Shown here piece after piece: positions 3,881-51,437 of a stretch of 64,000 nucleotides of DNA. Position numbers and translations under genes: made by a program. The DNA lies in contig JBNZDD010013698.1 in NCBI GenBank assembly GCA_050575255.1, positions 5,776,314 through 5,840,313 of the forward strand, given 5' to 3'. This DNA is from Harriotta raleighana (taxonomy: Eukaryota). The stretch's first letter is position 1; every line of letters begins with the position of its first letter. The notes below the pieces were generated by a model that worked only from the letters and a program-made list of their open reading frames with translations, had not been told where the DNA came from and made no database searches.

Positions 3881-4035
3881 ATATATTCTCACAGATCTCA
3901 GACTCCAATGGGATGATCGTGTACTTGAAGTTTGACCAATTCCTAAGGGAGGTGCTTAAGTTGCCCACAGCTGTGTTTGAGGGGCCGTCCTTTGGTTACA
4001 CAGAACACGCAGTCCGAACCTGCTTCCCACAACAG
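3881..4035 (+). CDS. DTNB: beta-dystrobrevin internal coding exon (EF-hand region), 155 bp
   Basis: Acceptor tttattacag|, donor CAG|gtgaga. Translates (Y)[51 protein letters not shown], a dystrobrevin sequence; [12 protein letters not shown] is the beta-type version. Missed by the ORF track. Confidence 0.95.
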
Positions 4036-4275
4036 GTGAGATGACTGGATACATTGTACATGACTGCAATTTGGAGGTGGGTTCCTTAATTAAGGAATCC
4101 AGATGTATGTCACTCCAATTTGTGGGAATTCCCGCTGACACAATCTATCAATGCAAAGATTGTTATTGTTATTAATTTCAGAGAGGAGTTCCTACAAGTT
4201 GCATGCGATGCATGGAATACATCTAGAGTTATCTAGATCCACATCTGGTTGCCAGAAGTGGATCTGACTTGATTC

Positions 4276-4520
4276 AACAACAAGAGAAAACAAATTGCAT
4301 TTATATTCTGTCTTTCACGTTGCGAGGATGACACAAGGTGCTGGACTGTCAAAGATTTGCATCCGAGCTGGGGGTCAGGGATTCGGGAGGGGTGAGGGCC
4401 GAGACAGCAGTGGGTGGTTGGGGGAGGAAATATGACCATAGAGTCAGTTGAAGACAAATGTCTTGAGAAGGACCTTGAAGGAGACGAAGGATTGGACAAG
4501 TCGAAGAGACTCTGGGAACA
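4276..4520 (-). mobile_element. L2 LINE 3' end fragment
   Basis: (CAA)n-type tail, catttat...tttcacgt...caaggtgctg, purine-rich 3' UTR as in the other L2 copies. Confidence 0.7.
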
Positions 4521-4541
4521 GCAGATTCCTTTGTTAACATA

Positions 4542-4760
4542 AACAAAAACGTAAAATACTACAGATGTTGGAAATCTGAAACAAAAAGTGCTGAGAACAC
4601 TCAGAAGGTCAGGCAGCATCTATGGAGAAAAGAAAAATGAGTCAACATTTTGTCAAGGACGTCCTGATGAAGGGTCGTGGACCCGAAACATTGACTCACT
4701 TTTCCTTTTGCCATAGATGCTGCCTAACCTGTTTAGTGTTCCCAGCGATTTCTGTTTTTG
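4542..4760. mobile_element. Palindromic Penelope-like terminal doublet with 16 bp TSD
   Basis: Arms ggcagcatctatgg...gagtcaac / ttgactc...ccatagatgctgcc. Flanked by the direct repeat ttcctttgttaacata (4526-4541, 4761-4776). Confidence 0.8.
4661..4696 (+). ncRNA. Minimal type I hammerhead ribozyme motif (PLE-associated)
   Basis: gtc-CTGATGA-a-gggtc-gtg-gaccc-GAAA-catt-gac: both core boxes, a 5 bp stem II and a short stem I (gtc/gac). Confidence 0.65.
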
Positions 4761-6533
4761 TTCCTTTGTTAACATATCTGCTTCATAACTGATCTAAGTT
4801 GGATCCCCTTGCTTGCCATTCTTTTGCTTGAAAGTGAATCGTGATTCTTTTCAAATTAGTGCTAGAAAAATTAAATTATCAGGATTTAAAAATTCTCAAA
4901 AGGTCTTAGATGTGGATGATTAGTACGGCGAATGTTATCGATTTGTAGGACTGGACACAGACTGAGCACATGGATGATTGTACACCGATTACTAAAAATA
5001 GAGAATGTGTCTCTGTAATGGGATTTCTTGAATAATCTGAACTCCGGTACTTAAAATAACTAAGTGAGCAATTTGTGAGAGGATGCAAATTCTAAAGCTA
5101 ATTAAGTGGCAGAAGGTTTAAAACGTAATGGTTTTATGCTGAGTGATTTGCCTATACAGTCATCTTGAGTAGCCACTTTAACCCAAAAGGCAGAGTGTAA
5201 CTCAATAATGAATAATTTGGGAGTCTGCGGTGTCTCCACTGAGAGCTGTAGTTATTGTACACCAGACTCATCCTCTCCCGAGACCTATCTGTTTGACAGG
5301 GCTATTGTGCACCTTTTCCTGCCAACCTCTTCTCTGCACCAGCTCGGGTCAGCTGTCAACTTTGAGATGTTTTCCTGCTGTTTGAATGTAAATTGGTTGT
5401 TGTTGTTATTGAATACATCTGTGCCAGTGTTTTTTTTATATGGTTATTCATAATCCTACATTTGATGTAGTCTCTTTCATGCCAGGAGGATGCATTAAAG
5501 TGTGGTGACTGTATCTTGTAGGCCAACATGCCAAGCTATTGATTCCATCAGGGGAAGGTTGGAAAGATGAAGGTGTAGAGGGGAGTTAGGACTAATTAAT
5601 GAGTTAGGAAATGGTTCTTCCACCTTTAGTGAGTTTATCTTTATCTAACTTGAACGGATGGAGTGAAAACCTCTTATTTTGCTGTCAGTTAGCAAATGAA
5701 TCCGGAAACCCTGATCATTATGGTGATGGATTGATAGTACTGTAACAATAAATAAGTCTGTGAATTTGTCATCACCGATATGTCTCTTGCATTAACAAGT
5801 CACCCATATTACGTTTAAAATGCACCATTGATTTCAAGTCTGTCCCAGCCCGAAGTATCAGAAACAAGGCTGTTGGAAGGAGCCCTGGTAATCCCTTTCT
5901 CAACAAAGTTCCTTCACAAGCAGATTTTCGATCAGAATATGATATGAATCAGTCAGATATACATTACATTATGGTATGATGGAATCCTGGCCACCTAAGA
6001 TTCAATTTGTACTTAATCCAGGGTCTCTTTAGAAACACAGCCCATTGAAGGCCAATTAGCCCATCAGGTCTCTGCTGGTTCTCTGAAAGACAAATCCATT
6101 CATTTACATTCTCCACACTCTTTCATATTTTACCTTTCCAGATATTTATCTAATACATTCTTAAAAGCTGATTTGGAGACCAGCTCAACCGTTGTTCCAA
6201 GCAGGGAATTCCATGATCTCCATCAGGGAGAAATGCTCCCCCAGATTGATGTGACGTATGCACGTTTCAATTTAGAGGCACCAAAAAGGAAGTCTGAACA
6301 GAAATTGTTCCTGGTTTGATCCCATTCATTTTTGTGACTGTTTGTGGGATATGAATGTGCGCCAGTTGGCTGCTGTTGCATTTTAACAACATGAGATGGA
6401 ACTGAATACAATGTAATGGTATTACAAAACTGAAAATTTTTGTTTGAATATTTCAGGGCTATCATTTTGTTGGCTGTGCTACATTACATTCTACATTGTT
6501 TAGCAGTGGGTCAATACAATAGTCCAACTCTGT

Positions 6534-8296: not shown

Positions 8297-10078
8297 GATT
8301 TTTAAATAAAGCAGATTGACTGTATTTTGTAAGCAAATTTTTGCATATAGATTCATAGATAGATTCATAGAAGTTTACGGCACAAAAGGAGGCCATNGGA
8401 TTGACTGTATTTTGTAAGCAATTTTTTTGCATATGGAAATGAAAAAAGATTGGGCTCATTTGTTAGCCTTTTAGCTATTATCTTAACATTTAAGATTGTA
8501 ACATTTAGAAATGTCTTAAATTTAAACTTAATTTGACATCAGTTCTTAACACAATTTCTGCACAATCTTCTGTTTAAAGATATTAAGGCTCGTAGTGTGA
8601 GAAATGTCAGGCCTCTTAAGTAGTTATTCAATAAATGTTATTCAATAAATGGTTCATTGAACCTTTTCTGATACTTTAATCAAGATTCATAGATAATTTG
8701 CTGAACAGAGTTCCTCTTGCTTTAGAAGCCTGGATGGAAATGGCATCTATCATTCTGAATGAGTTTTCAATTTATTAAAATTTAGTGTTATTCAAATCAC
8801 TTGTTCTAATAAATGAATAAATAGTTCCATGACTAACACAGATTGCAGGTTTGTGAACCTGAATGAAAAAAGCACTTAGAGCAATTTGTACCATGATTCT
8901 CTGAAACTAGGGTGCAAAATCCATGAGGTAAGACTTACTAAATTGATAACACTAGTTTATAATCATAATACTGTATAACGATTCAAGTACTCAATCCATT
9001 ACCTGTCAGATCACTCAAAAAGTCACTTCATTAACCAACATCAAGTATTCTTTAAATGGAAGGAAGGTAGATTTCCCAGATAATTAAATTTAAAATAATG
9101 TTAAAAATAAAACATTGAAATTAAAAAATGATTTATTGGCTAGGATACCAAATGTAAGGTTTATTATTAATATTAAAACAACACCTTATATAGCAGCCTG
9201 TCACGCAGGGTAGGGTCTCATAGTGTTTTCGTTTATTATTAATAATAAATCGAAATCCATCACTCATGTAACCGGTGTTTATCCATTTCTGAAATGGCTG
9301 AGGAGCAAGCATTCTTTTTGAGGTCTTATGTGAGGTGGAAATATTCAGTACCAAACTCTGTTCATACAGAACAACCATCTCTGTGTATCCTGGCCTTCTG
9401 ATGATTATCTTTCCACTTACTGTATTTCCTTCCAGTATAATATGGGACAGATTGTATTGAATGGAAATGGAAAAGTAAGTTAATGATATAGTGACATGGT
9501 ATGGTATATCATTGGATATGATAATATGCATTATCTAGTCGTCAAATGTTTGAAGGGTTCATAGGTGAAGTAAATGGAGAAAAATTGTATGACAAATGTT
9601 CAGACTGTAAATGTCCACATGAGGGCAGTGTTGCCTGTATTTTCGTTTGATCACACATTGCAGGTCTCAAACGAATAGCTATTTCTCCTAGCAAATCCTA
9701 ACTCATGGAAATTTGACCTTCACACCATCTTATGCCATGTAGGAATTGCTATTTGCAGCTTTTGGTCTTGTCTTGAATATTGGCCTTTCAACTCCCCTAG
9801 TTGGGTGTGTTACATTGCTCTTTATATAAATCCTTTTTAATGTCACCACACTGCCTGGGGAAGAGCTCCCTGTTAAACGTTGTCACTACAAACTGGTTAC
9901 CTCCTTTCCTGACCATTGCTTCACCAGATCTGAACACATTTTCATCCAGAATTATGTGTGCTTTTAAACCAATTTTCTTCCCCTCTTTCTCTCAACTGGA
10001 GTTAATGCCACAGATATGTGTTACCTTAGTCCACATGGTTCTCTGTGAGCCTTGACAATGCAGCCATCTACAGTATAT

Positions 10079-11075: not shown

Positions 11076-11405
11076 GGAGTCCTGTAGCTCAATGGTTAGA
11101 CCACTCATCTTACAAATGTGAGACCTGTGTTCGAATCCTTGTAGGTCAGGGTGAAACCTTGGGTAAGTTTCCTTACTCCACATACACGCCTAATAATAAT
11201 CCCTCCAAAAAAAAGCAATAATAGAATTGTTTATTTCAATCCCATGGCTGTTTGTGGGACGCTGCTGTGCGCAATTGGCTGCCGCGTTTTGCCCACAAAT
11301 ATACAGTCAATTCACTTTACAGTATATTCTGTGAAGTGCTTTGAGATGTCTAGAAGACTTGAAAAAGTGCTATATCAAATGCAAGGATTATTGTTATTAT
11401 ATTAT
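11076..11405 (+). mobile_element. Full-length tRNA-derived SINE
   Basis: A box, B box gttcgaatcc, Deu core, L2-like tail. Confidence 0.9.
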
Positions 11406-12873: not shown

Positions 12874-14103
12874 AACAACAACAACAAAATTACATTTATA
12901 GAGTGCCTTTTACATCGGGAGGACGTCCCAAGGTGCTGAACAGTTAAGAGTTGGGATGCCAGCAATTGGGTAGGGAAGAGATAAGGGTGTGGAGAGGCAG
13001 AGAGGTGGGAGGGCAGCTAAAGGCACAGTCAAAAAGGAGGGTCTTGAGATGGGCCTTGAAGGAGGTAGAGGAGGAAGTGAGGTGGAGGGACTGTGGGATC
13101 GAGTTCCAGAGTGTGGGGGCAAAGAAGCTGAAAGCCCGGTCACTGATGGTAGGATGGGTCTGGTGGGAGATATGGAGCAGACTGAACGGAGGGAGCGGGC
13201 AGATTGGTAGGGAGTCAGCATGTCGGAGAGGTAGGAGGGGGCAGCCTGAGGAGTGAGGCAGTGAAGGAGTCTGGCAATGTTGCAGAGGTGATGGAAGGCA
13301 ATACTGGTCATGGATGTGGGAGAGAAAGGACATTTCAGAGTCAAAAAAAAAAGATTCCTGACTGGCTTCATGAGGTGGAGTGTGCAGCCTTAGATGCTGA
13401 TGCTGCCAGCGCCTGAGGTGCGGAGGCGTTGACGCGAGCCGATCAGGAGAGCCTCGGTCTAGCTGATGTTGAGCTGGAGAAAGTTGTCCCTCGTCCAAGA
13501 CTTGATGTCGGACAGAGAGTCTGTCAGGACACCGGTAGTCCTGGTGTTCAAAGTGGAGGTGGAGAGGTAGAGCTGGGTGTCATCCCCAGACATGTGGACA
13601 ATTACGGTGGATTATGTCAGTGATGGGAGCATGTAGAGGGTGAAGACGAGGGAACCGAGTACAGAGCCCTGAGGAATGCTGCACAAGATGGTGCGGGAAC
13701 TGGAAGAAAAGCTGTTGGCAGAGACAAAGTGAAGACAGTTTGAAAGATAGGACCTGAACCAATCAAGGATGGAATCTTATAGGTTGAGGTGAGAGGAGAG
13801 GTGGTGGAGGAGGATTGAATGGTGTAAGGTGTCAAAGGTGGCAGAGAGGTTGTGGAGGAAGAGGAGGCAGAGAGAGCCCTGGTTACAGATAGTCAGGATG
13901 TCATTTGTGACCTTGACCAGAGCAGTTTCCATGCTGTGGGCAGCACGGAAGCCCAATTACAGGGGCTTGTGGAGGGGGTGGGATGGAGAGGAAAGAGCGA
14001 AGCTGGGAGTGAATGATTCTTTCAAGGACCTTGAACAGAAAAGGGAGGTTGGAGATGGATCAGTATTTGGAGAGCTGTGATGCATCAAGGGAAGGTTTCT
14101 TCA
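12874..14103 (-). mobile_element. L2 LINE fragment with degenerate reverse transcriptase
   Basis: Reverse complement encodes KPSLDASQLSKY..SNLPFLFKVLE, PQGSVLG and HMSGDDTQLYL (YADD decayed), then DRAFSFFAPTLWNSIP. Frameshifted and internally deleted. Confidence 0.9.
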
Positions 14104-18950: not shown

Positions 18951-19054
18951 TCAGTGGAATTGCCAATTGAATTAGAACTACCTCTTAGTATATGAATAAA
19001 AGCTCAGACCTCAAGCTCCTCAGAATTCGAACAACTAGCCTACTCACAAATATA

Positions 19055-19982
19055 AACCAAATGCAAAATACCGCAAATGCTAAAGATCTGAAACAGAACA
19101 GGCATACCAGAGAGAGAAAAGATATGTCTGGGACCCGAATGACGTGGTAATGATCACAGAAGAGTGGGATGGGGTGAAGGAAGGTGAGTTGTTATGGTCT
19201 GAAATTGTTTAAATCAATATTGAGGCCAGAGGGCTTTAAGGTCCCTACAACAACAACAACAAAGCTTCGATTTATAGAGCGCCCTCCACGCTGGACGGCG
19301 CATCAGAGTGTTTCACAATAACAGATCCCGGGGGCGAGCCAGGGGCAGGGGGAAAAAGGTGACCAAAGGCACGGTCGAAGAGAAAGGTGTTTAGTTGAGA
19401 CCTGAAGGTGCCTTGGCAGATGGATAAGGTGCTGTTCCTTGAGCTTGCACTGTGTGTGATTTATTGGAACAGCACAGTAGACTGTGGATGGAGAGGTCAG
19501 TCTACGAGTGGGAAGGAGAGTTGAAGTGGCAAAAAAATCAGAAGCTCAGGGTTGAGTTGCGGACAGAATGAAGGTGTGCAGCAAATCGGTCTCCCCAATG
19601 TAGAGACCATATTGTGAACAGTGAATGCAGTATCCTACATTGGTGATGATAAACATAAATTACTGTCTCACATCAGCCTCTGGGCCTAAACTCTCCTGTT
19701 ATGTTGCAATCCCCCTCCCCCCACTTTGTTTTACACCATTAACACCACCTTAACCCATCATTTCTTGCCCTCTAAACCATTTTTGCCTTTGTCTTCCTTG
19801 CCCTGCCTCCCCCCACTTTGTCTTCCTTGCCCTGCCTCCCCCCACTTCTGTTATACCTTAAAAAGTCTCTCCCTCCCAATGTGCCTCAGTTTTGATAAAG
19901 GGTCATGGACTTGAAACGTTGACTCACTTTCCTTTCTCCATAGATGCTGCCTGACTTGCTGTTCCCAGCGACTTCACTTTTT
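19055..19982. mobile_element. Penelope-like element remnant: GIY-YIG endonuclease (minus strand) plus inverted terminal copy
   Basis: Reverse complement of ~19195-19670 gives frameshifted NVGYCIHCSQYGLYIGET..RFAAHLHSVR..HFNSPSHS..KLKEQHLI..LKPSGLNID. The terminal repeat with a decayed hammerhead core is on the + strand at ~19888-19980. Confidence 0.8.
19247..19404 (-). mobile_element. L2 3' end inserted into the Penelope remnant
   Basis: (CAA)n tail; near-perfect TSD aaggtccct / aaggtgcct (19238-19246, 19405-19413). Confidence 0.75.
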
Positions 19983-21554
19983 ACTTACAAATATATTTGT
20001 TTACAAATATATGCTTTCACTGGGTTATTATGCAGGGTAGAAAATGACCTTGAATTTAACTTTGCATCGTATCATGTTGTTGAACATCTCAAAGCTCTTT
20101 ATAGGGTATAATAACGTTAGTCTTCTAACTGACTAACCGTCCGACCGACCGACTGACTGTGAATGTCCACATATCACGTAGTCCCTCTTGTGAAATGCTT
20201 TCGGACATCTTCCCAACGTGAAAGCCACTGATTGTTATTATGTATTTATAAATGGAAGGAGTAGGGAATGTGCACATAGTAATATCCCACAGATAGCTCT
20301 GACGTGGATGACTAATGTTCAGCTACAAAACACGGGATATTACTGTGATGTGCTTTTGAACATCTCCATGAGGCGACAATGTGTTAAATGCAAAGATTCT
20401 TCTATATTTTACGTAGAGGATTGTTAGCTAGGACACTGGGAGAAATTTACTTCAAGTAGTATTATGTAATCGCTAATGTCCACCTGAATAGAAATACACA
20501 ACCTTAGTTTAATGTTTGATCTTATTGACAATAGGGTGTCAGCATGGACTATGAGTAATCCTGACATGGGACTTGAACCAATAACCTCCTGACTCAGAGG
20601 CAAGGCTGTTACTGAGGCTGCCCTCAGATATAATCTCTTATAAATTACTTTCCATGCCCTAAAATTTTACTTGCTGCACTACTGTATAAATATGGTTTCA
20701 AGTGCACTTAAAGCTCTGCTCTCAATTACTAATAGCAGATTGAATATAATTGAAGTTCACTAAGCTATGCCTTAAAGGATTCTGAGTGTAGAAAGCTTTT
20801 TTAAAATTTTTCTTCAAGGTTTAAATTGTCTTAAAATATTGGTGTTAAGTTTTCTCACAAGTCGCTTGCAGGAACAAATTAACATTTGCATGGGTCAGCA
20901 TGTAAAATGTATAATCCCTTGTGCTGCTGGCCAAAAAAACAAAAGTTTTACAAATTGGCACTTTTTTGTTGGATAATTTATTTCCTGTTATTTCTTTAAA
21001 ATATTTCAAAATAAATGGAATAAATACTGCTTCCTAAAAGCATTGTAAAGTGTAATGTCCTTTACTGTTTACTGCATGAGTCAATTATCTGGATGTGGAA
21101 GCAAGCCTAATTTTTAAAAAAAATTCTGAGTCTTATTTGGTTCCATTAAAAAAAATCTGCTTGTTTGAACTAGTAACATCTGAAGAACATCTGTCAGTGA
21201 CAATTATGCAAAANAAGCCTAATTTTTTTTAAAATTCTGAGTCTTATTTGGTTCCATTCAAAAAAATCTGCTTATTTGAACTAGTAACATCTGAAGAACA
21301 TCTGTCAGTGACAATTATGCAAAATTGTCTGTCAAGAGAAATGAACAAATAGAGCCATAGTAATACCAGACTTGTCTTCTGATAGCCTGTGAAGTTATGA
21401 TCACTCAACCCAGTCTTGGAGAGAGACCAGAGAAAGTAGGTTAAAAATAGACAGATCATATACATTTCCAGTAGGTAGCTTGGAAGTGGATGTTGGAAAT
21501 GTATTTTTTTCACAAATGTTTTTTAAACAATGGTAGCGTTTAATCACTAATTAA

Positions 21555-22010
21555 AATAATCCTTACATTTGATATAGTGGCTAGTCACATCATTGAGACG
21601 TCTCAAATCGCTTCACAGAATATACTGTTGAGTGAATTGACTGTATATTTTGTGGGCGAAACGTGGCAGCCAATTGCACACAGCAGTGTCCCGCAAACAG
21701 TCGTGGATTGAATGTCCAATTTATTTATTTATTTAATGGAAGGGATTATTAATCCTGGAAAAGAGCAGGGTCATACATATTGCCAGATAAACAGAGGAGC
21801 ATGGGATAAAGTAACCTTTGTAAGGTTTTGCTGTCCAATTTATTTATTTATTTAATGGAAGGGATTATTAATCCTGGAAAAGAGCAGGGTCATACATATT
21901 GCCAGATAAACAGAGGAGCATGGGATAAAGTAACCTTTGTAAGGTTTTGCCATGCCTGGGAATCAAACCCGGGTGCAAGGTGAATGCTCTAACCACTATG
22001 TTACAGGACT
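21555..22010 (-). mobile_element. tRNA-derived SINE with internal tandem duplication
   Basis: Tail, Deu core and head (gctctaaccact...acaggact) are present. Confidence 0.85.
21713..21950. repeat. 119 bp x2 perfect tandem duplication
   Basis: 21713-21831 reads identical to 21832-21950. Confidence 0.9.
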
Positions 22011-23987: not shown

Positions 23988-24302
23988 TAATAATAACAAT
24001 CCTTGCATTTGATATAGCGCTTTTCATGTCTCCTAGACATCTTAAAGTGCTTCACAGAATATACTGTAAAGTAAATTGACTGTATATTTGTGGGCGAAAC
24101 ATGGCAGACAATTGCGTACAGCAGTGTCTCACAAACAGTTGTGGATTGAAGTGATCAATTTTGTTACTTTTTTTTGTCTTGAGCGATTATTATCAGGCGT
24201 ATGGAATAAGGAAAACTTGGCCAAGGTTTCACCCTGCTGGGAATTAAACCCAGGTCTCTCGCTTGCGAGGCGAATGCTCTAACCATTGAACTATAGGGCT
24301 CC
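23988..24302 (-). mobile_element. tRNA-derived SINE
   Basis: Complete tail, core and head on the minus strand. Confidence 0.88.
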
Positions 24303-26228: not shown

Positions 26229-26601
26229 GTGTCCTATAGCTTACTGATTATAGCACTCGCCTTGCAAGTGAGAGGACCTGGATTCGATTCCCAGGCAGGA
26301 TGAAATGTAAAGCAAGTTTCCTTAGTCCACATGGCTCTGTGTATCTAGCAGGAAGTAGGAACCCGCAAATTTGATTGGTGTATCACTTTGGCGTAACAAA
26401 TCCTTCAATATAATAACAAAATAAATAAATAATTTGGTCACTCAATCCACGACTGTGTGTGGGACACTGCTGCGCACAATTGGCTGCTGTGTTTCTCTAC
26501 AAAATATACAGTCAATTCACTTTATGATATATTCTATGAAGCTCTATGAGACATCTCAAAGATATGATAAGGCACTATATCAAATGCTGGGATTATTATT
26601 A
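26229..26601 (+). mobile_element. tRNA-derived SINE (long variant)
   Basis: Head with gattcgattcc, extra ctagcaggaagtaggaacccg segment, core and tail. Confidence 0.85.
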
Positions 26602-28096: not shown

Positions 28097-28411
28097 ATAA
28101 TAATCATAATCCTTGCATTTGATATAGTAGTTTTCATGTCTTCTATATGTCTCAAAGTGCTTAAGAGAATACACTGAAAAGTGAATTGACTGTATACAGG
28201 TGGGTGAAACGTGGCAGCCAATTACGCACAGCAGTATCCCACAAACAGTCGTAGATTGAAATGACTAATTATTGATTTTGTTCTGAGGGATTATTGTCAG
28301 GCGTGTGGAGTAAGGAAAGTTGCCCAAGATTTCCCCCTGACCTGCTGGGAATTGAACCTAGGACTCTCGCTTGTAAGGCGAGTACTCTTAACCACTGAGC
28401 TATAGGACTCC
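28097..28411 (-). mobile_element. tRNA-derived SINE
   Basis: Complete copy on the minus strand ending ...gagctataggactcc. Confidence 0.88.
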
Positions 28412-29460: not shown

Positions 29461-30752
29461 TATTTGAAAAGAATTTGGAAAGTTTCTGACCAGCAGAACC
29501 CTCCTGAAATCTTTTTGTATCATTAAAATACTGGCTGAATGTCGACTGAACTGCCGTACTATAGGTTCTGTTTTAGTTAACTTTCGTAGAAAATGTCAAA
29601 GCAAAACAGAGAATGTTTAATCCTTCAAGGCTGTATTTATCATCTCACTTGGCACTATTAATATAAAAGTAATCCAAAGAAAAGATGCACTTCTGAAACA
29701 GTTGCCACCCAGAACATCAAATGAGTTTGAATTTATGAGGGCAAATGATTTTATTATACAGCGTGCGAGTGTGCTTGTTTAACAAGTCTGAAATCTTCTA
29801 ACTTACATACCTCAGATGATCTCTGTGGCATGAGTGCCGCAAGGTAAGCAAAATAACAAATTAATAATTTCCTTCTAATATTTTAGCATTTTATTTTTCC
29901 AAATGCTTCTTATTTCTGAAGCAGTTCTCCACTCCCAGTCAACCCACAGATGTGAAAGCTGCAACTAATGATCTCTTCCACCTTTAAAGTACAAGCCTTG
30001 CATTTTCTATCTTAGTCTCAATCTAATGTCATTTTAATTTAGCCAGGTTTGTACTGTCATAAATATATTGATGCAGAAAGTGACTTAGCTTTTGCCAAAT
30101 CTAAAATTTGATTGATTCATTGTTGAAAAATGCAAAACATAAAGGTTGCTTCAATGCCTATTTAGAACTCTAAAGACTTGATCTAATGCAAATTGCTTGT
30201 TCAGCACTTTGCACAAAGGGACGGTCGTTAATACTTCAAAATGTATCATTTGAAAGTGCTAATATTTGAATAAACATTTCAGATTGGAAATTTGTCTGAG
30301 TTTGCAAACCAAAAATCTGCTCCACATGTAATTTATAATGTTATTGATATTACAACTCACTAATATTGGGATTCAGTCCTTACATAAATGACTCCCTCCC
30401 TTTACAGCCAGCTCATTTTTGTCGTTTTAGTCCACCAGTGATAGAGTTGATAAGCCAACCATCAAATAAACGTTGTGTCAAGAGAATATTTTTAACTTGA
30501 GAGTAAATTGGCTGTACCTGCATTCTGGAAATAGGATCTCAGAATCAATGGGAGAAGCATGTGGATACAATTAGCACCTTTGCCAAGTTTAGTAATGAGA
30601 AATCTGGATGGGTTGATGACTTTCTTCCACATTGTTCATTTCTAAGCCAAGGAAAGAGTGCCTTTAAAATCACATTGGCAGCAGTAATTCAGGCATACCT
30701 TCAATGCGTTTTAAAGTCGTTTGCACTTAAAATCCAACAATGATCGGAGCAA

Positions 30753-30846
30753 AAACAGAAATCGCTGGGAACACTCTGCGGGTCATGCAGCATCTATGGA
30801 GAAAGGAAAAGTGAGTCAACGTTTCAGGTCCACGACCCTTCGTCAG
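30753..30846 (-). mobile_element. ~94 bp Penelope-terminal insert with 14 bp TSD
   Basis: TSD aatgatcggagcaa at 30739-30752 and 30847-30860; the body matches the arm at 4664-4760. Confidence 0.85.
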
Positions 30847-30848
30847 AA
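30814..30848 (-). ncRNA. Minimal hammerhead ribozyme motif
   Basis: Reverse complement: tt-CTGACGA-a-gggtc-gtg-gacct-GAAA-cgtt-gact; intact core boxes and palindromic AACGTT. Confidence 0.7.
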
Positions 30849-31409
30849 TGATCGGAGCAAGTTGACTAGAAATGGAAAAAAAATCTGACCAGTTTCTAAC
30901 ACGTTCCAGCTTGATTAAAATAATTTTTTTAAACTGATGTTAGTGGCTGATTTGAAAGTGTTCCTAACTAGAAATTTTGCAATAGTTTTTCAGAACCTTA
31001 CACTGCATGCAGCTTGCAAATAAATTGTAATGAATTGTCTTTTGTGTGTTACTCCATGCTACTTACTTTATCTTGATAATGTAAGTACTGTATGGTCATT
31101 GTCAAATTTATTTCTGTTTAAATGTTATGCAGTCGATTGTGTGAAGCACTTTGAGATATCTTGAAGTCGTGATAAGGCGCTATCTCAAATGCAAGGATTA
31201 TTATTCTGGTTATTATTTTCCTAGAGTTGATATGATAAGCAGGGTGGCAATTATGATGGGATGTATGGGCCAGTTTCTGTGTATCTGAGGCATGGGGTTA
31301 GTAGTTCTTGTCTACTGGGACCCAGTTGTTCCACAAGTCCAATAGCATATAGTGAATACTTAAAGTCTATAGAAATCATAAGGACATAATAAATGTTTTA
31401 GCTGTACTT

Positions 31410-32677: not shown

Positions 32678-34958
32678 GTGAGTAATTAGCTTTTATCTGA
32701 AATTAAGCCCAGATGTGAATAGTACTGCAATGGTTTCTTTATTTCATGAATAAATGGCGATTGCAGAGAGATTGGGGCAATGCATTGATAGTACTGCAGT
32801 AGCTTCCTTTGTAACACATCAAAATACACTTTGAATTGATTTTGCATAAACTGGCAAACCAACCTGGTTGCATTAATCAACGTGGAATTCGCAGTGAAGA
32901 TCTTATTACTGCATTACTGGAGACTAAAAACCTACTTAAAAACTGTTACAATTATTGAAGTTTTAGTTCTTAATTGCATCCACCAAACCATAGTGTATCT
33001 CATTATGAAAAATGCAAGAGAATGAAATTCAAGCCTCGCCAGCTGGTTAAGTGCTTGTTTATTAGAGACTCAATTCTTCCTAAACCAATACTTTTATTGG
33101 CTGGTATTGATGCAATCTATTCTGTGTTTTGATTTGAGTGTTTTCACAAATGTGCTGATGGCGTTGTAACTGAGTTACAAACAATATAAGTAGATTTTAT
33201 CATTTAGCATTGGCTGCTGTTCACATCAGAATTATTTGAAATTCAAACTTTGAATTTTGTTTTTGTTAAAGTTCCCCCAAGAATTAGATAAGATTAATCT
33301 GGTAAATTGTCTTACATTCATTAATGTAAGTTATATACCAGGGATGCATTAGCAAAAGGTATGTACGGAGAGGAATAGGTTTTCTTTATTGTAAACTCTT
33401 TTGAGGCCTCTAACACTGTCTACGTACACTTGGAATGTTGAACATAATGAAGTCTTCAGTAAAGGTATCACATAGAATTTGGGGGGTCTTTAGCAGTAGC
33501 ATCTTCAAGCCACTTTCATTCAAAGCTGCAAAACTATCATTGCATGGAGGCAATCAGCCCACTAAATCCTTGTTTGTAATGTAGTAGCAAATTCAATGGC
33601 AGTCAATTAGTCTATGCTCTCTGTGTTATTGCTCAGTTTATCTTGACGTTGTGCTATTTCCTGGAGGATTTCCATTGCAAGCATGCTGCAAATGTTATAC
33701 TAAATGGCCAATAAGATATCCATGACATCATATGGACAAAATTATAAGATGATTTAGGAGTAGGTTGTTGCTGGAGGATTCAATGACAAGAACTGTTTGC
33801 GCCTGTGTAATGCTTTTCATGTAGGAAACCATTTCAGAAATGTTTACAGTGACTGTGCAGGACCCTGAGTGTGTGAGTGTGTGTGTGGGGGGGGGAAGGT
33901 TTTGAAAGATGAGATGGTAGGATTTGGATAGAGAGTTCCATACACATTCACAGACCAGCATTGATAGTTATGCTGCTGCTGTGAGAGACAGAATTTAAAG
34001 GCATGGTTTAGCACTGAACTAAAACCCTTAAATTACACGTACGATGCTTGATTTATTTTCAAATTGCAAGCCACATACATTGGATCTGATCATTGCCTTC
34101 TGCTGTATTGTTTTAATCTGCACTGTTTACAGTCAAAACTCTTTGTTCAACTCATCACAGCCTGAAATTAATAGGATTTTCACAGTTCTAGCTTAAACAG
34201 AATGTGTGTATTTGCTCAGTCACCTTAGAGAAGGGCAGCGATGGAAGAATTGTGAGTTCTTTTGAGGTCACAAATTGAGAAGAGAGTGGGAAAGATTTAG
34301 TGGTTTGTTTGCTCTCCTTACAGAGATGATGATTCACTGTTGAGATTAATTAACTGATTCTGATCTACACAGGACTGAATTTCCTAGTAATCAACTGCAG
34401 ATTATTTCAGCAAGCTTACTGACAAAATAAATGTCACCATCATTTGTTCTCTGACTATGCCTCCAGGTGGAATGGGCGGGGGAGGTAAAACCAAGCCCAA
34501 ATTCCTTATTCACCCTCCTACAAAAAATATCACTTGATGGTACATCTTATGAAGTGTTTTGAGTTGTCCACTAGATGTGACAGACTATATATTACATGTA
34601 ATGATTATTAATATATATCCCTCTCCACTGTGCATAATTGGCTTCTATATTCGCCCACACAATATATAGTCAATTCACTTTACAGTATATTTTGTGATGC
34701 ACTTTCAAACATCTTGAAGGTTCTATATATTTGTCCTGTAGCTCAGTGGTTAGAGCACTCGCCTTACAAGTGTGAGATCTGTGTTTGAATACAGTCAGAT
34801 CAGGGTGAAATCTTGATCAAATTTCCTTACTTCTTACTCCACACAACTCATAATAATCTGTCCCCCAAAAAAAATCTATAATAAAATTGATCATTTCAAC
34901 CCAAGACTTGTGGACACTGCTGTGTGCAATTGGCTGCCGCGTTTCACCCACAAATATA

Positions 34959-35629: not shown

Positions 35630-37346
35630 TAGTCGATTCATTTTACAATATATTCTGTGAAGCACTTTGAGACGTCTAGAAGATGTGAAAAGTACTATAT
35701 CAAAGGCAAAGATTATTATTTATTATATATCAAATGTAAGGATTATTATTATTAAACTAGTGTACAGATTATGGTCTGCAACAGAGAACAACAACATTAA
35801 ATTTGTAGAACTAGGACTGAATACAAGAAATAAAGATTTTATAAAAGGGGAGAGTTCTGAAACAAAACAAGAAATGCTGGCAATCCAGGCCAGTCAGCGC
35901 CTGAAACAGAAAGTTTGGCTAAGGTTTTGGGCACTGTCTTTAATCAACAACAGTAACAAAATGACATTTATAGAGTGCCTATCACGTTGGGAGGACGTTC
36001 CAAGGCGCTGGAACAGGGAGTGGGTTGAAATCTGAAATCTAAAGTTGACTGTTCAATTTTTACTACTCCTGAAGCTAATTGGAGCACCTCTGTTCAATTG
36101 CTGGCTTGGAACTGTTTCTACTTCATCTTCATTCCCTTGTGTCCTCAGCATGTGTTATTACTCTAAATGTCATAACAATGGACCTTTAGCATTAATTTGA
36201 CACAGAAATGACACAAGAGCAACTGCTAAACATCCCAATCTAATTTTGGGCAGTCTGTAATCAGCTTATGGTTTTCGTTGGTGACAAACATGCTTTGAAA
36301 CATACTCAATTTGCACTGCTATAATAAATGCAAAAATAATCTCACTGTGGTTTTCAATCTACCATACCAAACCGTCACCCCCCAAAAAAAACACATTGGT
36401 CGTAAATAGCCCTGTATATTTTACACACTGAAAATGAAGTATACTTCGGGCTGACAAAACAACATTGAGAGAAGTGGTGACTGTAGTTAAAATACTCGAG
36501 GCATCACTATGCGTGTTTGAGGCTTGCTGACCCAACCTGCATGTATCAACGGACCACACCAAAGACTCGGGTCTGGACGTCAAATCAATGGGTCGGTGCT
36601 TGCATGTTGTGAATGGGCAGGATCAATTTTATTTGGCTGCTCACAACCATCTCACACTCGAGCAGGTTGCAGTCACTTTCAGTTACGTAAGTAGGACATA
36701 ACTATGTTTCCCCTTTGTCACTAAAACTCCACATTGTAATCTCTCTTGTCAGTTCAATATGATTATTCATTGTGTTTCTGAATCTTACAGATGATCAAAT
36801 TCTTGTGTTTCATCCCAATTCGGTGTTGAGTTTACTGTCCTCAGCCTGGGTGAATGCAGGATTTATAATTGGCTTCAGCTAATGGATTTCCATTGATATC
36901 CAGGAACCCCTGATCGAGATGCATATGTGTATATCGGGTGACAACAGGATCAGGCATACTAGAGAAGATCACAGAAATGACATACTAGAGGGAAATCGCT
37001 GCTTTGTGGAATTATTTTCTTTAGAAAATAAGAGTGGGAGTATTCATGGGTCTTAACTGTAACCATTTGTAAGTGGTACAATGGGATCTGGCTAAGGCTT
37101 GCTGAGAATAGAAATTTGGGATTACTGTATATGGACAGAGATGATATTAAATAGTGCATAACATTCGTGCCTAGTTAATACATGATAAATTATATTCTAT
37201 TATACATCTGGAAGCAACATTTGTCCATGCTATAAAGGATGACTCATTCAATAGCTCAATTTTCCTTAGAGTGAGTATGTGTGATGATGGAAATGAATAG
37301 CATTTAAGCAGTTTGCATTTAGAGTTTCATGGTGATAAACAGTTTC

Positions 37347-37588
37347 AACAAAAAAACAACAATTGCTGGAAGCACTCAGCAAGTCTGGCAGCATGAATGG
37401 AAAAGGGAAAGTGAGTCAACGTTTTGGGTCCATGACCCTTTGACAGAAGGATCTGATGAGGGAACCTGGACTCAAAACGTTGACTCACTTTCCTTTCTCC
37501 ATAGATGCTGCCTGAACTGCTGAGTGCTCCCAGCAATTTCTGTTTTAGTTTTAGACTTCCAGCATCTACAACATTTTGTGTTTTGTTT
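37347..37588. mobile_element. Palindromic Penelope-terminal doublet with decayed hammerhead cores
   Basis: Arms gaaagtgagtcaacgttttg / caaaacgttgactcactttc around ...gaccctttgacagaaggatctgatgagg... Confidence 0.8.
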
Positions 37589-38809
37589 ATTTTAAAAAAA
37601 GGTGCTTGATTGGGGACATGAATTGACTGACACAGCTTTGACTCAGAATCCAGTAGTGCCATTATACATTATATTCTACATTAAATTCTAGTTTTGAAAA
37701 TGCTTCCTGGGAACATTCATCAGGGCTACCTGAATTCTAATTTGTGGATTAGAAACAGGAAAAATGCAGGAACATTATTTGAATGATGCAAAACAATTCA
37801 GTATCCCCATATTCCGGCTGTTCTGGTACATTTCTGTGGTTTGAACTGTATATTTTGAGAATTGCAAAGAAAGATGATCTGCCCTCTCAGATGCTATCCT
37901 GGATGAAGGTAAATTGTATCTGATTTAAGATTGAATGAATCCAACGCTCTTTGGTGGTGAGAGATGACTTGACAGGGTTGATGGGCAAATATCCCAAATC
38001 TCATCGAATAAAACATCCTCTCAATAGAAAAAGGATGTGCATTAAAATCACATTTATCCATTCCAGTACCTGGAGATATTCTCACTGCCAATAATTTGGG
38101 CTGAAAGCTGCTTTAAGCTTTGCTTGCAGCCATTTATTGGCCAGTATCAATTTCACTTCTAAGTACATGTATGGTTCTCCTCTCAGATGTGGTGTTAAGA
38201 AATGCTAGAATATAAAATTATATCATATTTCAAAGCTCTGTGCAAATTATGTGTTCCCTCTGGTGTGTTGTTGCAATGGTAAATTGCATTGTGCATCAAG
38301 TGAATCATCAGGATATGACATCTGATATCTCATACTTCCGATCCAAGCATGAAATTCAAATGGTCTTTACACATTCCCTCCTATTACAGTGTATGGAATC
38401 CCTGCTCCTCACATTATTTACACCTGTAATTGTTTCACCACAATAGAATGATTTCTTCATCATTCAGCTGCAGTGGAAAAGTTCTGATGTTCCTGTCTAT
38501 GAATAGGTCCATAGACGTACTTTGAAGTGAAATTGACAACACTGTGTAATTGAAGTACTGTACACAGTGGTAGATCTTTTAAAATTTATCTAAAGTTGGT
38601 AAAGCCAGGCTCTGGAAATTCAATAGAAAGTTGAACACATTGAAATGCTGGGCAACAATATTTGAGGTTAGCAGGTTATCAATGCAGTGGATGAAAACTA
38701 AACTAGGCATCTCTATTTGTGGATGTTCTCTGCAAATTTGCAGATATGAATTAACGCATAATGTTTCTATTCCAACGTTTATATTTCAGCCTTTACTTTA
38801 GTAGTAATT

Positions 38810-41971: not shown

Positions 41972-42291
41972 GGAGTCCCGTAGCTCAGTGGTTAGAGCAC
42001 TCGCCTTACAAGCGTGAGACCTGTGTTTCGCATCCAGGCAGGTCAGGGCGAAACCTTGAGCAACTTTCCTTACTCCACATTCCTAATAATAATCCCTCCA
42101 AAAAAACCACAACAATAAAATTGGTCATTTCAATCCATGACTGTTTGTGGAACACTGCTTTGCACAATTGGCTGCCGCCCACACATGTATGATCAATTCA
42201 CTTTCCAGTATATTCTGTGAAGCGCTTTGAGACATTTAGAAGAGGTGAAAAGTGCTATATCAAATGCAAGGATTATTATTATTTTATTATT
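41972..42291 (+). mobile_element. Full-length tRNA-derived SINE
   Basis: ggagtcccgtagctcagtggttagagcactcgccttacaagcg... tail (TTA)n. Confidence 0.9.
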
Positions 42292-45690: not shown

Positions 45691-46114
45691 GGCAGAAATC
45701 ATAGAAATGAAATGATAAAAATTAAACTGAAAAATATTCACAACTACTTAACACAAGCAAATGAACAGGGTAGAGGAGGAAGAGAGATATCTAATGCCGC
45801 TTTATCATTTAAAAAAAAACCTTTGAGACAGCTGGATAATGATGTCTTTGGGGATCAAGGGTTAGAACTTGAAAGAATCATGTGAAATTGATCAAAATCG
45901 ATAGGTTCGAGGGGGTTAGGCACAAGGTTATTTGTGTTCTCATTTTGTAACTTGGCAGATCAGGACCCTCGGTTAGCTCTCACACCTCCTCCTCATATGC
46001 TATGTTTCTGATGATTGTCAAATATTGCTCCCCCTAACCTACAGTAATAATTTCAGGCAGGAACTTGTTTGAAGCTTTTTGTATAGCATTTTTTTTTCTT
46101 CTACTACCTATGTG

Positions 46115-46320
46115 AAAAACAGAAATTGTGGGAACATTCAGCAGGTCAGACAGCATCTATGAAGAAAGGAAAGTGAGTCAACGTTTTGTGTCCATGACCC
46201 TTCGTCAGAACTGGGCCAAGTTGAGAGGGAGAAGCTTTTAAGAACGAAAAGAGAAGGGTGGAGGGTAGGGCAAGGAAGACTAAAGAAAACGGGGTAGAGG
46301 ACAGGAGAAGATAGGTTAAA
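46115..46320 (-). mobile_element. Penelope-like terminal fragment with hammerhead-like core
   Basis: Reverse complement agtt-CTGACGA-agggtcatggacac-aAAA-cgtt-gact, followed by the common terminal sequence. Confidence 0.75.
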
Positions 46321-50511: not shown

Positions 50512-50791
50512 GTTCCGCTGACCCACCTGCTCCATCATTGGCGGGCGAGCCTTCAGCCACTCTGCCTCTAACCACTGGCACTCCATTTCGCAGTCCCTCC
50601 GCCTCGTCCCCTCCCTGGCCTCCTTCAAGTCCCTCCTCAAGACCTTCCTCTTTGACGGTCTCATTGGTCACCCCAAATCCCCACTTTACCTCCACCTGTC
50701 CCGTCCCCAGCTCAGGTCTGAAATAATGACTGTCCAGCGTCTCGGGATGTAAATGATGTGAAAGGTGTTATACAAGTGTAATTTTGTTGTT
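50512..50791 (+). mobile_element. L2 3' fragment
   Basis: ggcgggcgagccttcagc (GGRAFS), ctcaagaccttcctctttgac (LKTFLFD), tail. Confidence 0.8.
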
Positions 50792-51437
50792 NGGAGACGC
50801 TGGACAGTCATTATGACTGTCCAGCGTTTCGGGATGTAAATGATGTGAAAGGTGTTATACAAGTGTAATTTTGTTGTTAGAATGCGATGCAAGGGAAATC
50901 ATTGTTTCATCAAACTGGAGTTCAGTATAGATGCTGTTTTTAGTTTTAAATGTTAAAATGGCAATTTGCAGTTTTTCAAGAATTGTGATTATGCTACATT
51001 TCAGATTGAGTCTGTTATGAAATGATGAAATTTGAGTCACCAATTATCTGCATTTTTTTAGGTTAGAAACCCTCTGCAAGCTTGACATAGAGTTGGAGCC
51101 TTTAAAAATTCTTTGGCTGGCATCTTAGTTTGGGGCTGAGTGAGATCAAAAGAAAACATGTTTATATGACTTCAAAGGCAACATCTGACATCCTATTTTT
51201 AGATGTACAAATACATTATACATTAGTGGGTGTCTACAGATCTCCAACCATGTTGAGGGAGAGCGGGATACAATGTCCACAGTTGAGCATTTAACAGCAG
51301 ATAGAGCCCTGTGTAGGAATTAGGAGTTGGAACATCTTGTGTCCAGTGCCCTGGCTACAGTCAGCACAAACTGAGAAATGGCTTTCATGCTAAACCTGGT
51401 TGTATCTTCATGCAATGAATCATCAGGAAAGCCTATA

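Follow-up and report, generated by a model that had tools for sequence, protein, structure and literature searches.

The element inserted at positions 4526–4776 of the 64,000-nucleotide stretch of DNA analyzed here (the window) is probably an old, decayed, 5′-truncated insertion of the end of a high-copy Penelope-like element (PLE). We are more confident still, on sequence and folding models together, that it is a PLE end fragment whose hammerhead motif is inactive. The insertion, hereafter the query, is an ordinary example of an insertion shape that is already known, and as one decayed copy among approximately 10^4 the single locus has little weight. The following features define the insertion and its nearest exon.

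3883–4035, + strand: DTNB coding exon (Pfam EF-hand_3, E 2.6e-17; 98% to Callorhinchus milii dystrobrevin beta; tblastn exon map)
4526–4541, + strand: left TSD copy, 16 bp, the final two bases of which also fit the family tail end
4542–4578, − strand: PLE tail of ~37 nt, on the left antisense arm only, unpaired with the right arm and matching the read consensus beyond 4762 elsewhere
4579–4660, − strand: left arm, an antisense pseudo-LTR end without hammerhead stem II (15–16 nt absent)
4656–4665, no strand: perfect 10-bp palindrome at the head-to-head junction, with its centre between 4660 and 4661
4661–4695, + strand: type I minimal hammerhead by the definition in PMC4209133; its core and stem II are intact, stem I has 3 bp and helix III is absent
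4661–4760, + strand: right arm, a sense pseudo-LTR end without tail, matching the solo copy at 30753–30846 with 87–89% identity
4761–4776, + strand: right TSD copy, 16 bp, an exact match to 4526–4541

Of 6,050 matches to the exon upstream of the insertion, the best is P0006, a Callorhinchus milii dystrobrevin named beta, with 98% identity; the exon also matches dystrobrevin structures in the PDB. These matches point to a cartilaginous fish, likely a chimaera, as the host. Besides P0006, all matches that are named alpha or beta among the 120 matches listed are beta. The following DTNB exon begins at ~14865 by tblastn, so the host intron runs from 4036 to ~14864 and the element is intronic. The hammerhead core is located 629 nt past the DTNB donor on the sense strand, in agreement with the figure of about 630 nt given in an earlier first-pass annotation of this DNA. 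The left flank (4250–4525) is itself a lower-copy repeat, with an X12 read depth of up to ~200 at 4300–4349, and the element lies at or near the end of that repeat.

The insert is 219 bp in size and contains no ORF. It is bounded on both sides by the same exact 16-mer, as the first-pass annotation had reported; the chance probability of such a repeat is ~8e-7 at the base composition of the window, with 40 × 40 offsets allowed. The inverted repeat itself (4579–4650 and 4686–4757) comprises 72 nt with 81% complementarity. Measured as far as the centre, the left arm amounts to 82 nt, to which an unpaired extension of 37 nt is added, and the right arm to ~100 nt, so that the earlier description of two arms of roughly 90 bp is fair as to size but misses their asymmetry. 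The match of the right arm to the family extends to 4762. The left-arm extension (4542–4578) is the 30–40-bp PLE tail: in other genomic copies the tail bases continue the sense unit, and 1,438 X12 reads run past 4762 with the consensus. The left-arm gap of 15–16 nt (the arm is 15 nt short of the second doublet, described below, at the centre) lies, by eye, between two CGAA-type words, a placement that suggests a template jump or slip; we read the missing stem II as a putative deletion.

Five insertions of this repeat family are present in the 64-kb window. In addition to the query and a copy at 46115–46211, they are as follows.

19042–19995, no strand: inverted insertion of larger size, flanked by a 13-bp TSD (1 mismatch); the antisense arm bears the tail, and the sense arm has no tail and holds a decayed hammerhead
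30739–30860, − strand: solo tail-less hammerhead unit (unit 30753–30846) with an exact 14-bp TSD
37346–37590, no strand: second short head-to-head doublet, with outer ends as in the query, a centre 15 nt longer, and both hammerheads decayed

No TSD was detected at the element ends of the second doublet (37346–37590) or of the copy at 46115–46211. Five bases at the tail end are identical in all three inverted insertions (4540–4544, 19053–19057, and 37585–37589), and in the two that have a TSD, the outer two bases of the tail are the last two of the TSD. The tail-less ends overlap the TSD by 2–3 bases in the query (4761–4762) and in the solo copy (30750–30752). These overlaps between element ends and TSDs suggest either short primer–template pairing or a cut preference.

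The identity of the family comes from the larger inverted insertion, whose antisense arm carries a frameshifted GIY-YIG remnant (~19195–19246 and 19405–19672) split by an unrelated repeat. The splitting fragment (19247–19402) is a later insertion, probably the 3′ end of an L2 element. In a HMMER search, a 50-residue fragment of the remnant (with X at two stops) matched six library proteins at E up to 1e-3; five of the six carry GIY-YIG below the Pfam cut-off (E 6e-4 to 0.02), and all six align back to the remnant at 19463–19672 with E ~1e-9 to 1e-10. The four proteins that were examined further are gene models of sharks and rays. A direct Pfam scan of four endonuclease fragments returned 0 matches, and a word-indexed protein search with endonuclease fragments returned 1 candidate, with none scored. 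The ORF's C-terminal end passes into the hammerhead repeat at 19055–19246 and 19660–19982. Because the end of the GIY-YIG ORF runs into the hammerhead repeat and the tail, the repeat is, judged from its sequence, the pseudo-LTR end of an endonuclease-positive PLE (EN+ PLE). The PLE origin that had been assigned in the first pass thus gains a GIY-YIG remnant physically joined to the family within the TSD-flanked insertion at 19042–19995. No RT domain linked to the family was found within the window, which has no full-length copy; the RVT_1 domain of P0123, considered as support, maps to a separate window locus (13438–13761) and was set aside. Upstream, homologues of the fish endonuclease have an additional Cys-rich segment, a feature that would point to the Neptune type by analogy with the description in PMC8557442. 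We note that P0121, P0123, P0124, and P0125 are shark or ray models that end in a PLE endonuclease fused to unrelated N-termini (e.g., a receptor-transporting-protein-like zinc domain, or DUF4518), and are either exonised fragments or annotation artefacts.

The family is abundant. Among the raw DNA reads of X12, depth is ~4,100–4,200 per arm vs 0.58 on average in the 19 flank bins, which corresponds to ~14,000 arms (range 8,000–35,000 by the flank value used) at an identity of at least 80%. X1 and X12 may derive from the species or source of the window itself, and we do not count them as independent evidence for the locus. Relative to the majority of the five other window arms, the two arms of the query show 88.8% and 86.9% identity; relative to each other, 77%. 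The corresponding intron of organism C differs from the window at 58 of ~612 letters (~9%), and one organism C contig, aligned over 4735–5349 and apparently ending at 4735, joins 26 element bases to the right flank, fewer than our bridging rule of 31 letters. By sequence comparison, the insertion is probably common to the window species and organism C at this divergence of ~9%. For organisms B and C, contigs spanning the centre show differences at 19/115 and 14/104 letters, respectively, and are not tied to the query locus. In the three contig runs, an empty site was absent from all 24 listed pieces.

Two other repeat features of the window are recorded here. Seven tRNA-like Rfam matches at the gathering threshold (1201–1272, 11078–11149, 24229–24300, 26230–26303, 28337–28409, 34732–34803, and 41974–42046) stand at the head of, or beside, a repeat that matches the window dozens of times, likely a tRNA-derived SINE family. 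Exact adjacent duplications with a period of 85–119 bp occur at 21713–21950, 21120–21325, 50742–50880, and 8314–8421, three of them beside single Ns, and are likely assembly artefacts at gaps.

The first-pass annotation proposed that the palindrome arrived in one event, and the proposal holds up. We infer a single event because one TSD bounds both arms, because the arms are equally diverged, and because they have a marker in common, a one-base subfamily difference that is shared with the solo copy and lacking in 4 of the 5 other arms. The second TSD-flanked inverted insertion, at 19042–19995, provides a further instance of the same architecture. Among the inverted insertions of the window, the tail is on exactly one arm in 3/3 and a TSD is present in 2/3, and the three have three different centres. 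Variation of the centre is also seen among reads and contigs from other copies: reads join 4584–4587 to 4664 in 4/4 runs (with 15 reads for 4587–4664 in X12), and contigs join inverted pieces at 4621–4664, 4623–4670, 4626–4670, 4636–4677, and 4650–4690. Opposite-strand joints such as 4632–4702 and 4579–4762 were excluded from the doublets, since single copies split across the two arms yield them. Because the centres vary between copies, formation in situ is preferred to a fixed palindromic unit, and the mirror half was likely constructed anew at each insertion, as far as sequence comparison can indicate. The earlier term "doublet" hides the variable centres, which point to in-situ formation. 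Against formation in situ, some contigs span the short centre of the query with only 4–6 gap letters (X1 record 4; X5 records 20 and 21; X10 record 10); X1 record 4 is a paralogue, differing at 14 letters vs 0–1 in the X1 flanks.

In the mechanism that we favour, the GIY-YIG endonuclease would nick an AT-rich site on both strands, with 16 bp between the nicks, and both nicks would prime reverse transcription on the element RNA. The distal start site would give rise to the tail-bearing left arm and the proximal start site to the tail-less right arm. Both copies would halt on reaching the hammerhead's 5′ edge, where they would be joined head to head, and fill-in would produce the 16-bp TSD. The left arm would have lost stem II through a template jump over the stem II hairpin, or by later deletion. 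In the DTNB pre-mRNA, the left arm, which is made first, would pair with the right arm and bury stem I and helix III, so that no cutting would take place, and the dimer palindrome would have been removed afterwards by CpG decay. We infer both the priming steps and the neutrality of the insertion. Two-strand priming is favoured from PMC11167929, PMC8557442, and PMC3846280 combined with the architecture seen in the window, at what we judge to be about even odds between it and fold-back as the source of the mirror arm.

Fold-back is the strongest alternative, and we hold it as a tentative possibility. In this route, which has been proposed for rotifer Penelope elements, one nascent copy would fold back and prime itself, and the endonuclease would then resolve the product at the boundary of the tail, leaving the mirror arm. 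The perfect 10-bp palindrome at the junction is what such a route would leave, junction palindromes having been interpreted as self-priming in PMC3846280, and both arms depart from the local consensus by a T-to-C change immediately before the core. However, a simple self-copy would not generate arms that differ by a gap of 15–16 nt, the two arms of 19042–19995 differ greatly in length and content, and the end of the tail-less arm coincides with the end of the solo copy, which would be a normal RT start.

A second alternative is that the palindrome is a fixed, non-autonomous SINE- or MITE-like element, transcribed and moved as a 219-bp unit and forming a small fixed subfamily. The identical outer ends of the second doublet would fit such an element, as would the several contigs that span the short centre in 3/3 contig runs and the 81–121 reads over it. 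Yet that depth across the query centre is only ~2–3% of the arm depth, three insertions in the window have three centres with many more among the joints, and two RT start sites (PMC11167929) account for the constant outer ends, all of which make a fixed unit unlikely.

We next consider the hammerhead that the right arm carries. Its elements are exactly as given in the first pass for the transcribed strand: stem I (4661–63/4693–95), the core (4664–70), an extra A (4671), stem II (4672–76/4680–84), GAAA (4685–88), and CA-UU (4689–92), with a nominal cut site at 4692/4693. The CUGANGA/GAAA/UH core, stems I and II, the extra base after position 9, and the G10.1–C11.1 pair of minimal hammerheads are all present. 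The motif is confined to the right arm. Rfam gives no hammerhead match in the query at the gathering threshold, nor at E up to 10; the sub-threshold matches at E up to 10, to miRNA precursors and others, were dismissed as chance. The query retains all core bases and stem II, which 4 of the 5 other hammerhead arms do not, a difference that is weak at such a sample size.

Positions 15.2/16.2, which are palindromic in the family and would there support a dimeric helix III, read CA in the query and CG in 5/5 other hammerhead arms of the window and in the read consensus of 4/4 runs. The predicted dimer duplex of helix III has an energy of +2.8 kcal/mol with the CA of the query vs −3.5 kcal/mol with CG, which bears out the earlier statement that the CGUU-to-CAUU change breaks the dimer palindrome. 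The companion suggestion, that this change may have silenced the motif, is not required to account for its silence: the change is a CpG transition in a copy that is 11% diverged from the local consensus, and it looks like CpG decay and not a silencing step. The helix-III CpG is lost in 2/2 query arms vs 0/5 other arms (p ~0.05, calculated by hand and post hoc), a pattern that exceeds what plain decay suggests, though not strongly at such a sample size. In the other arms (19889–19984, 30749–30848, 37346–37552, and 46113–46213), the CpG preceding GAAA has decayed in 5/5 and the helix-III CpG four bases later is intact in 5/5; the query is reversed.

The 5′ edge of the hammerhead is also where short copies begin, at most ~3 nt away (4661, 30848, and 37448–37450). 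Two longer copies (19887–19889 and 46213–46215) have a pyrimidine tract and CAG immediately upstream of this edge, resembling a splice acceptor, and in Drosophila Penelope an intron ends at helix I (PMC4209133). A start hot spot at this edge could be set by spliced RNA or by an RT stall. A start of copies at the hammerhead cut site was considered and discarded as unsupported, with depth over 4664–4699 (~4,200, estimated from coarse bins) equal to that over 4700–4749.

The predicted fold of 4542–4760 is one long hairpin of 75 pairs at −88.9 kcal/mol (z −9.94), and 0/200 shuffled sequences are as stable. Folding was performed with ViennaRNA, which models neither the hammerhead core, nor dimers, nor protein help. 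The long hairpin has a predicted advantage of 12.1 kcal/mol over the hammerhead-compatible fold, vs 1.3 kcal/mol for the right arm alone, and the predicted probability of stem I in the full insert is ~3e-8. With CG restored in silico, the advantage of the hairpin becomes 15.4 kcal/mol (right arm restored) or 19.5 kcal/mol (both arms). During transcription, the predicted gap is 3.6 kcal/mol at 4695, just after stem I, and exceeds 6 kcal/mol two bases past the completion of stem I. The hairpin and the hammerhead had been presented as competing structures; a balanced competition is not supported, the predicted gap being 12.1 kcal/mol in favour of the hairpin. Because this gap is large, becomes larger with the ancestral CG, and the left arm is transcribed first, the modelled hammerhead has likely been sequestered since insertion. 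Within the right arm, an acceptor-like site on the DTNB strand (4691–4716, +; 80% pyrimidine over 20 nt, then TAG at 4714–4716) may allow cryptic splicing, although it lies inside the predicted hairpin.

These results bear on a functional reading, in which a hairpin-gated intronic ribozyme or dsRNA switch has been retained in DTNB and its cleavage or editing affects the pre-mRNA; the ribozyme form would have been fixed before the split from organism C and would cut co-transcriptionally or with protein help, paralleling the DTNB hammerhead of birds and reptiles. If true, a hammerhead would have been domesticated independently in DTNB, the gene that also carries one in birds and reptiles. The sense-strand core and stem II are intact, organism C probably has the insertion too (the contig at 4735–5349), the 75-pair hairpin could serve as an ADAR substrate, and DTNB intronic hammerheads of birds and reptiles are mentioned in PMC6155905. 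On the other hand, helix III is absent and the dimer palindrome is broken, core changes are present in both other sense-strand copies of the window, no cis partner was found in the window, and even intact PLE minimal hammerheads are described in PMC4209133 as without activity as monomers and with low activity as dimers. Moreover, the divergence of the arms resembles that of other copies, and with the family inserted five times within 64 kb, chance would be expected to place a copy in DTNB. We regard both the retained switch and the retained DTNB ribozyme as highly improbable. The least probable reading is that two separate insertions occurred, the second head to head onto the first, or that the direct repeat is a chance one: PLEs are said to insert beside earlier copies (PMC6765202) and the arms are merely 77% identical, but a single exact 16-bp repeat surrounds both arms with none at the centre, and the arms are equally diverged from the consensus with a common marker.

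As a class, such insertions have some use. PMC8557442 still describes as undefined the way in which PLEs form their inverted arms and one-sided tails, and stumps such as the query are short enough to show both ends, the centre, and the TSD together, so that a census of them in the genome of a cartilaginous fish could separate two-strand priming from fold-back.

Among known systems, the hammerhead invites comparison with three. In metazoan non-LTR retrozymes, canonical type I hammerheads are arranged in direct tandem repeats of ~170–400 nt (PMC7229834); a retrozyme is ruled out by the single minimal motif in an inverted arrangement. Conserved intronic hammerheads of amniotes are found in RECK, in CTCL, and in the DTNB of birds and reptiles (PMC6155905). 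Like the amniote DTNB hammerhead, the query motif is of type I and lies on the sense strand of a DTNB intron. However, according to PMC6155905 the amniote hammerheads are conserved, occur at single loci and make tertiary contacts, whereas the query is one of ~10^4 decayed copies, with a TSD and no Rfam match, and a domesticated intronic hammerhead of the amniote type is ruled out by the lack of helix III and of any Rfam hammerhead match. Because five family insertions occur in 64 kb and Rfam gives no hammerhead match, the simple reading is that the occurrence in DTNB of both fish and amniotes is a coincidence. The third system is the minimal hammerhead of PLEs, which acts as a dimer, single motifs being inactive (Cervera and De la Peña 2014, PMC4209133). 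The query resembles metazoan examples of that paper in its core, the extra base between 9 and 10.1, G10.1–C11.1, and the absence of helix III, with palindromic 15.2–16.2 in its family, and differs from them in its CA at 15.2/16.2, its 3-bp stem I, and its setting in a long hairpin.

The insertion as a whole is closest to EN+ PLEs. The Poseidon PLE of Anolis has been studied in vitro, where the protein cuts and extends both strands, two RT start sites bracket the tail, and the uncut RNA is the template (Frangieh et al. 2024, PMC11167929). An AT-rich target and inserted copies that retain an uncut hammerhead are common to Poseidon and the family described here, whereas inverted doublets are present here and none are reported in the available text of that paper, and TSD/element overlaps of 2–3 nt occur here. 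No report of short palindromic PLE insertions from cartilaginous fish came up in a literature search whose coverage excluded Repbase/Dfam and most subscription papers. Insertions of EN+ PLEs typically include an inverted 5′-truncated copy, with a tail of 30–40 bp at one end (Craig et al. 2021, PMC8557442), and rotifer PLEs have inverted pLTRs, TSDs of 8–10 bp, and junction palindromes (Arkhipova et al. 2013, PMC3846280). The TSDs of the present family are longer, at 13–16 bp vs 8–10 bp. Unlike the EN+ PLEs of these two papers, the query is only 219 bp without an ORF, and both of its arms stop at the 5′ edge of the hammerhead. It nevertheless shares with them, by itself or through its family, the inverted copy, the one-sided tail, the junction palindrome, a TSD around the whole unit, and GIY-YIG, and by the features testable here the query belongs to the EN+ PLEs, as a short dead fragment.
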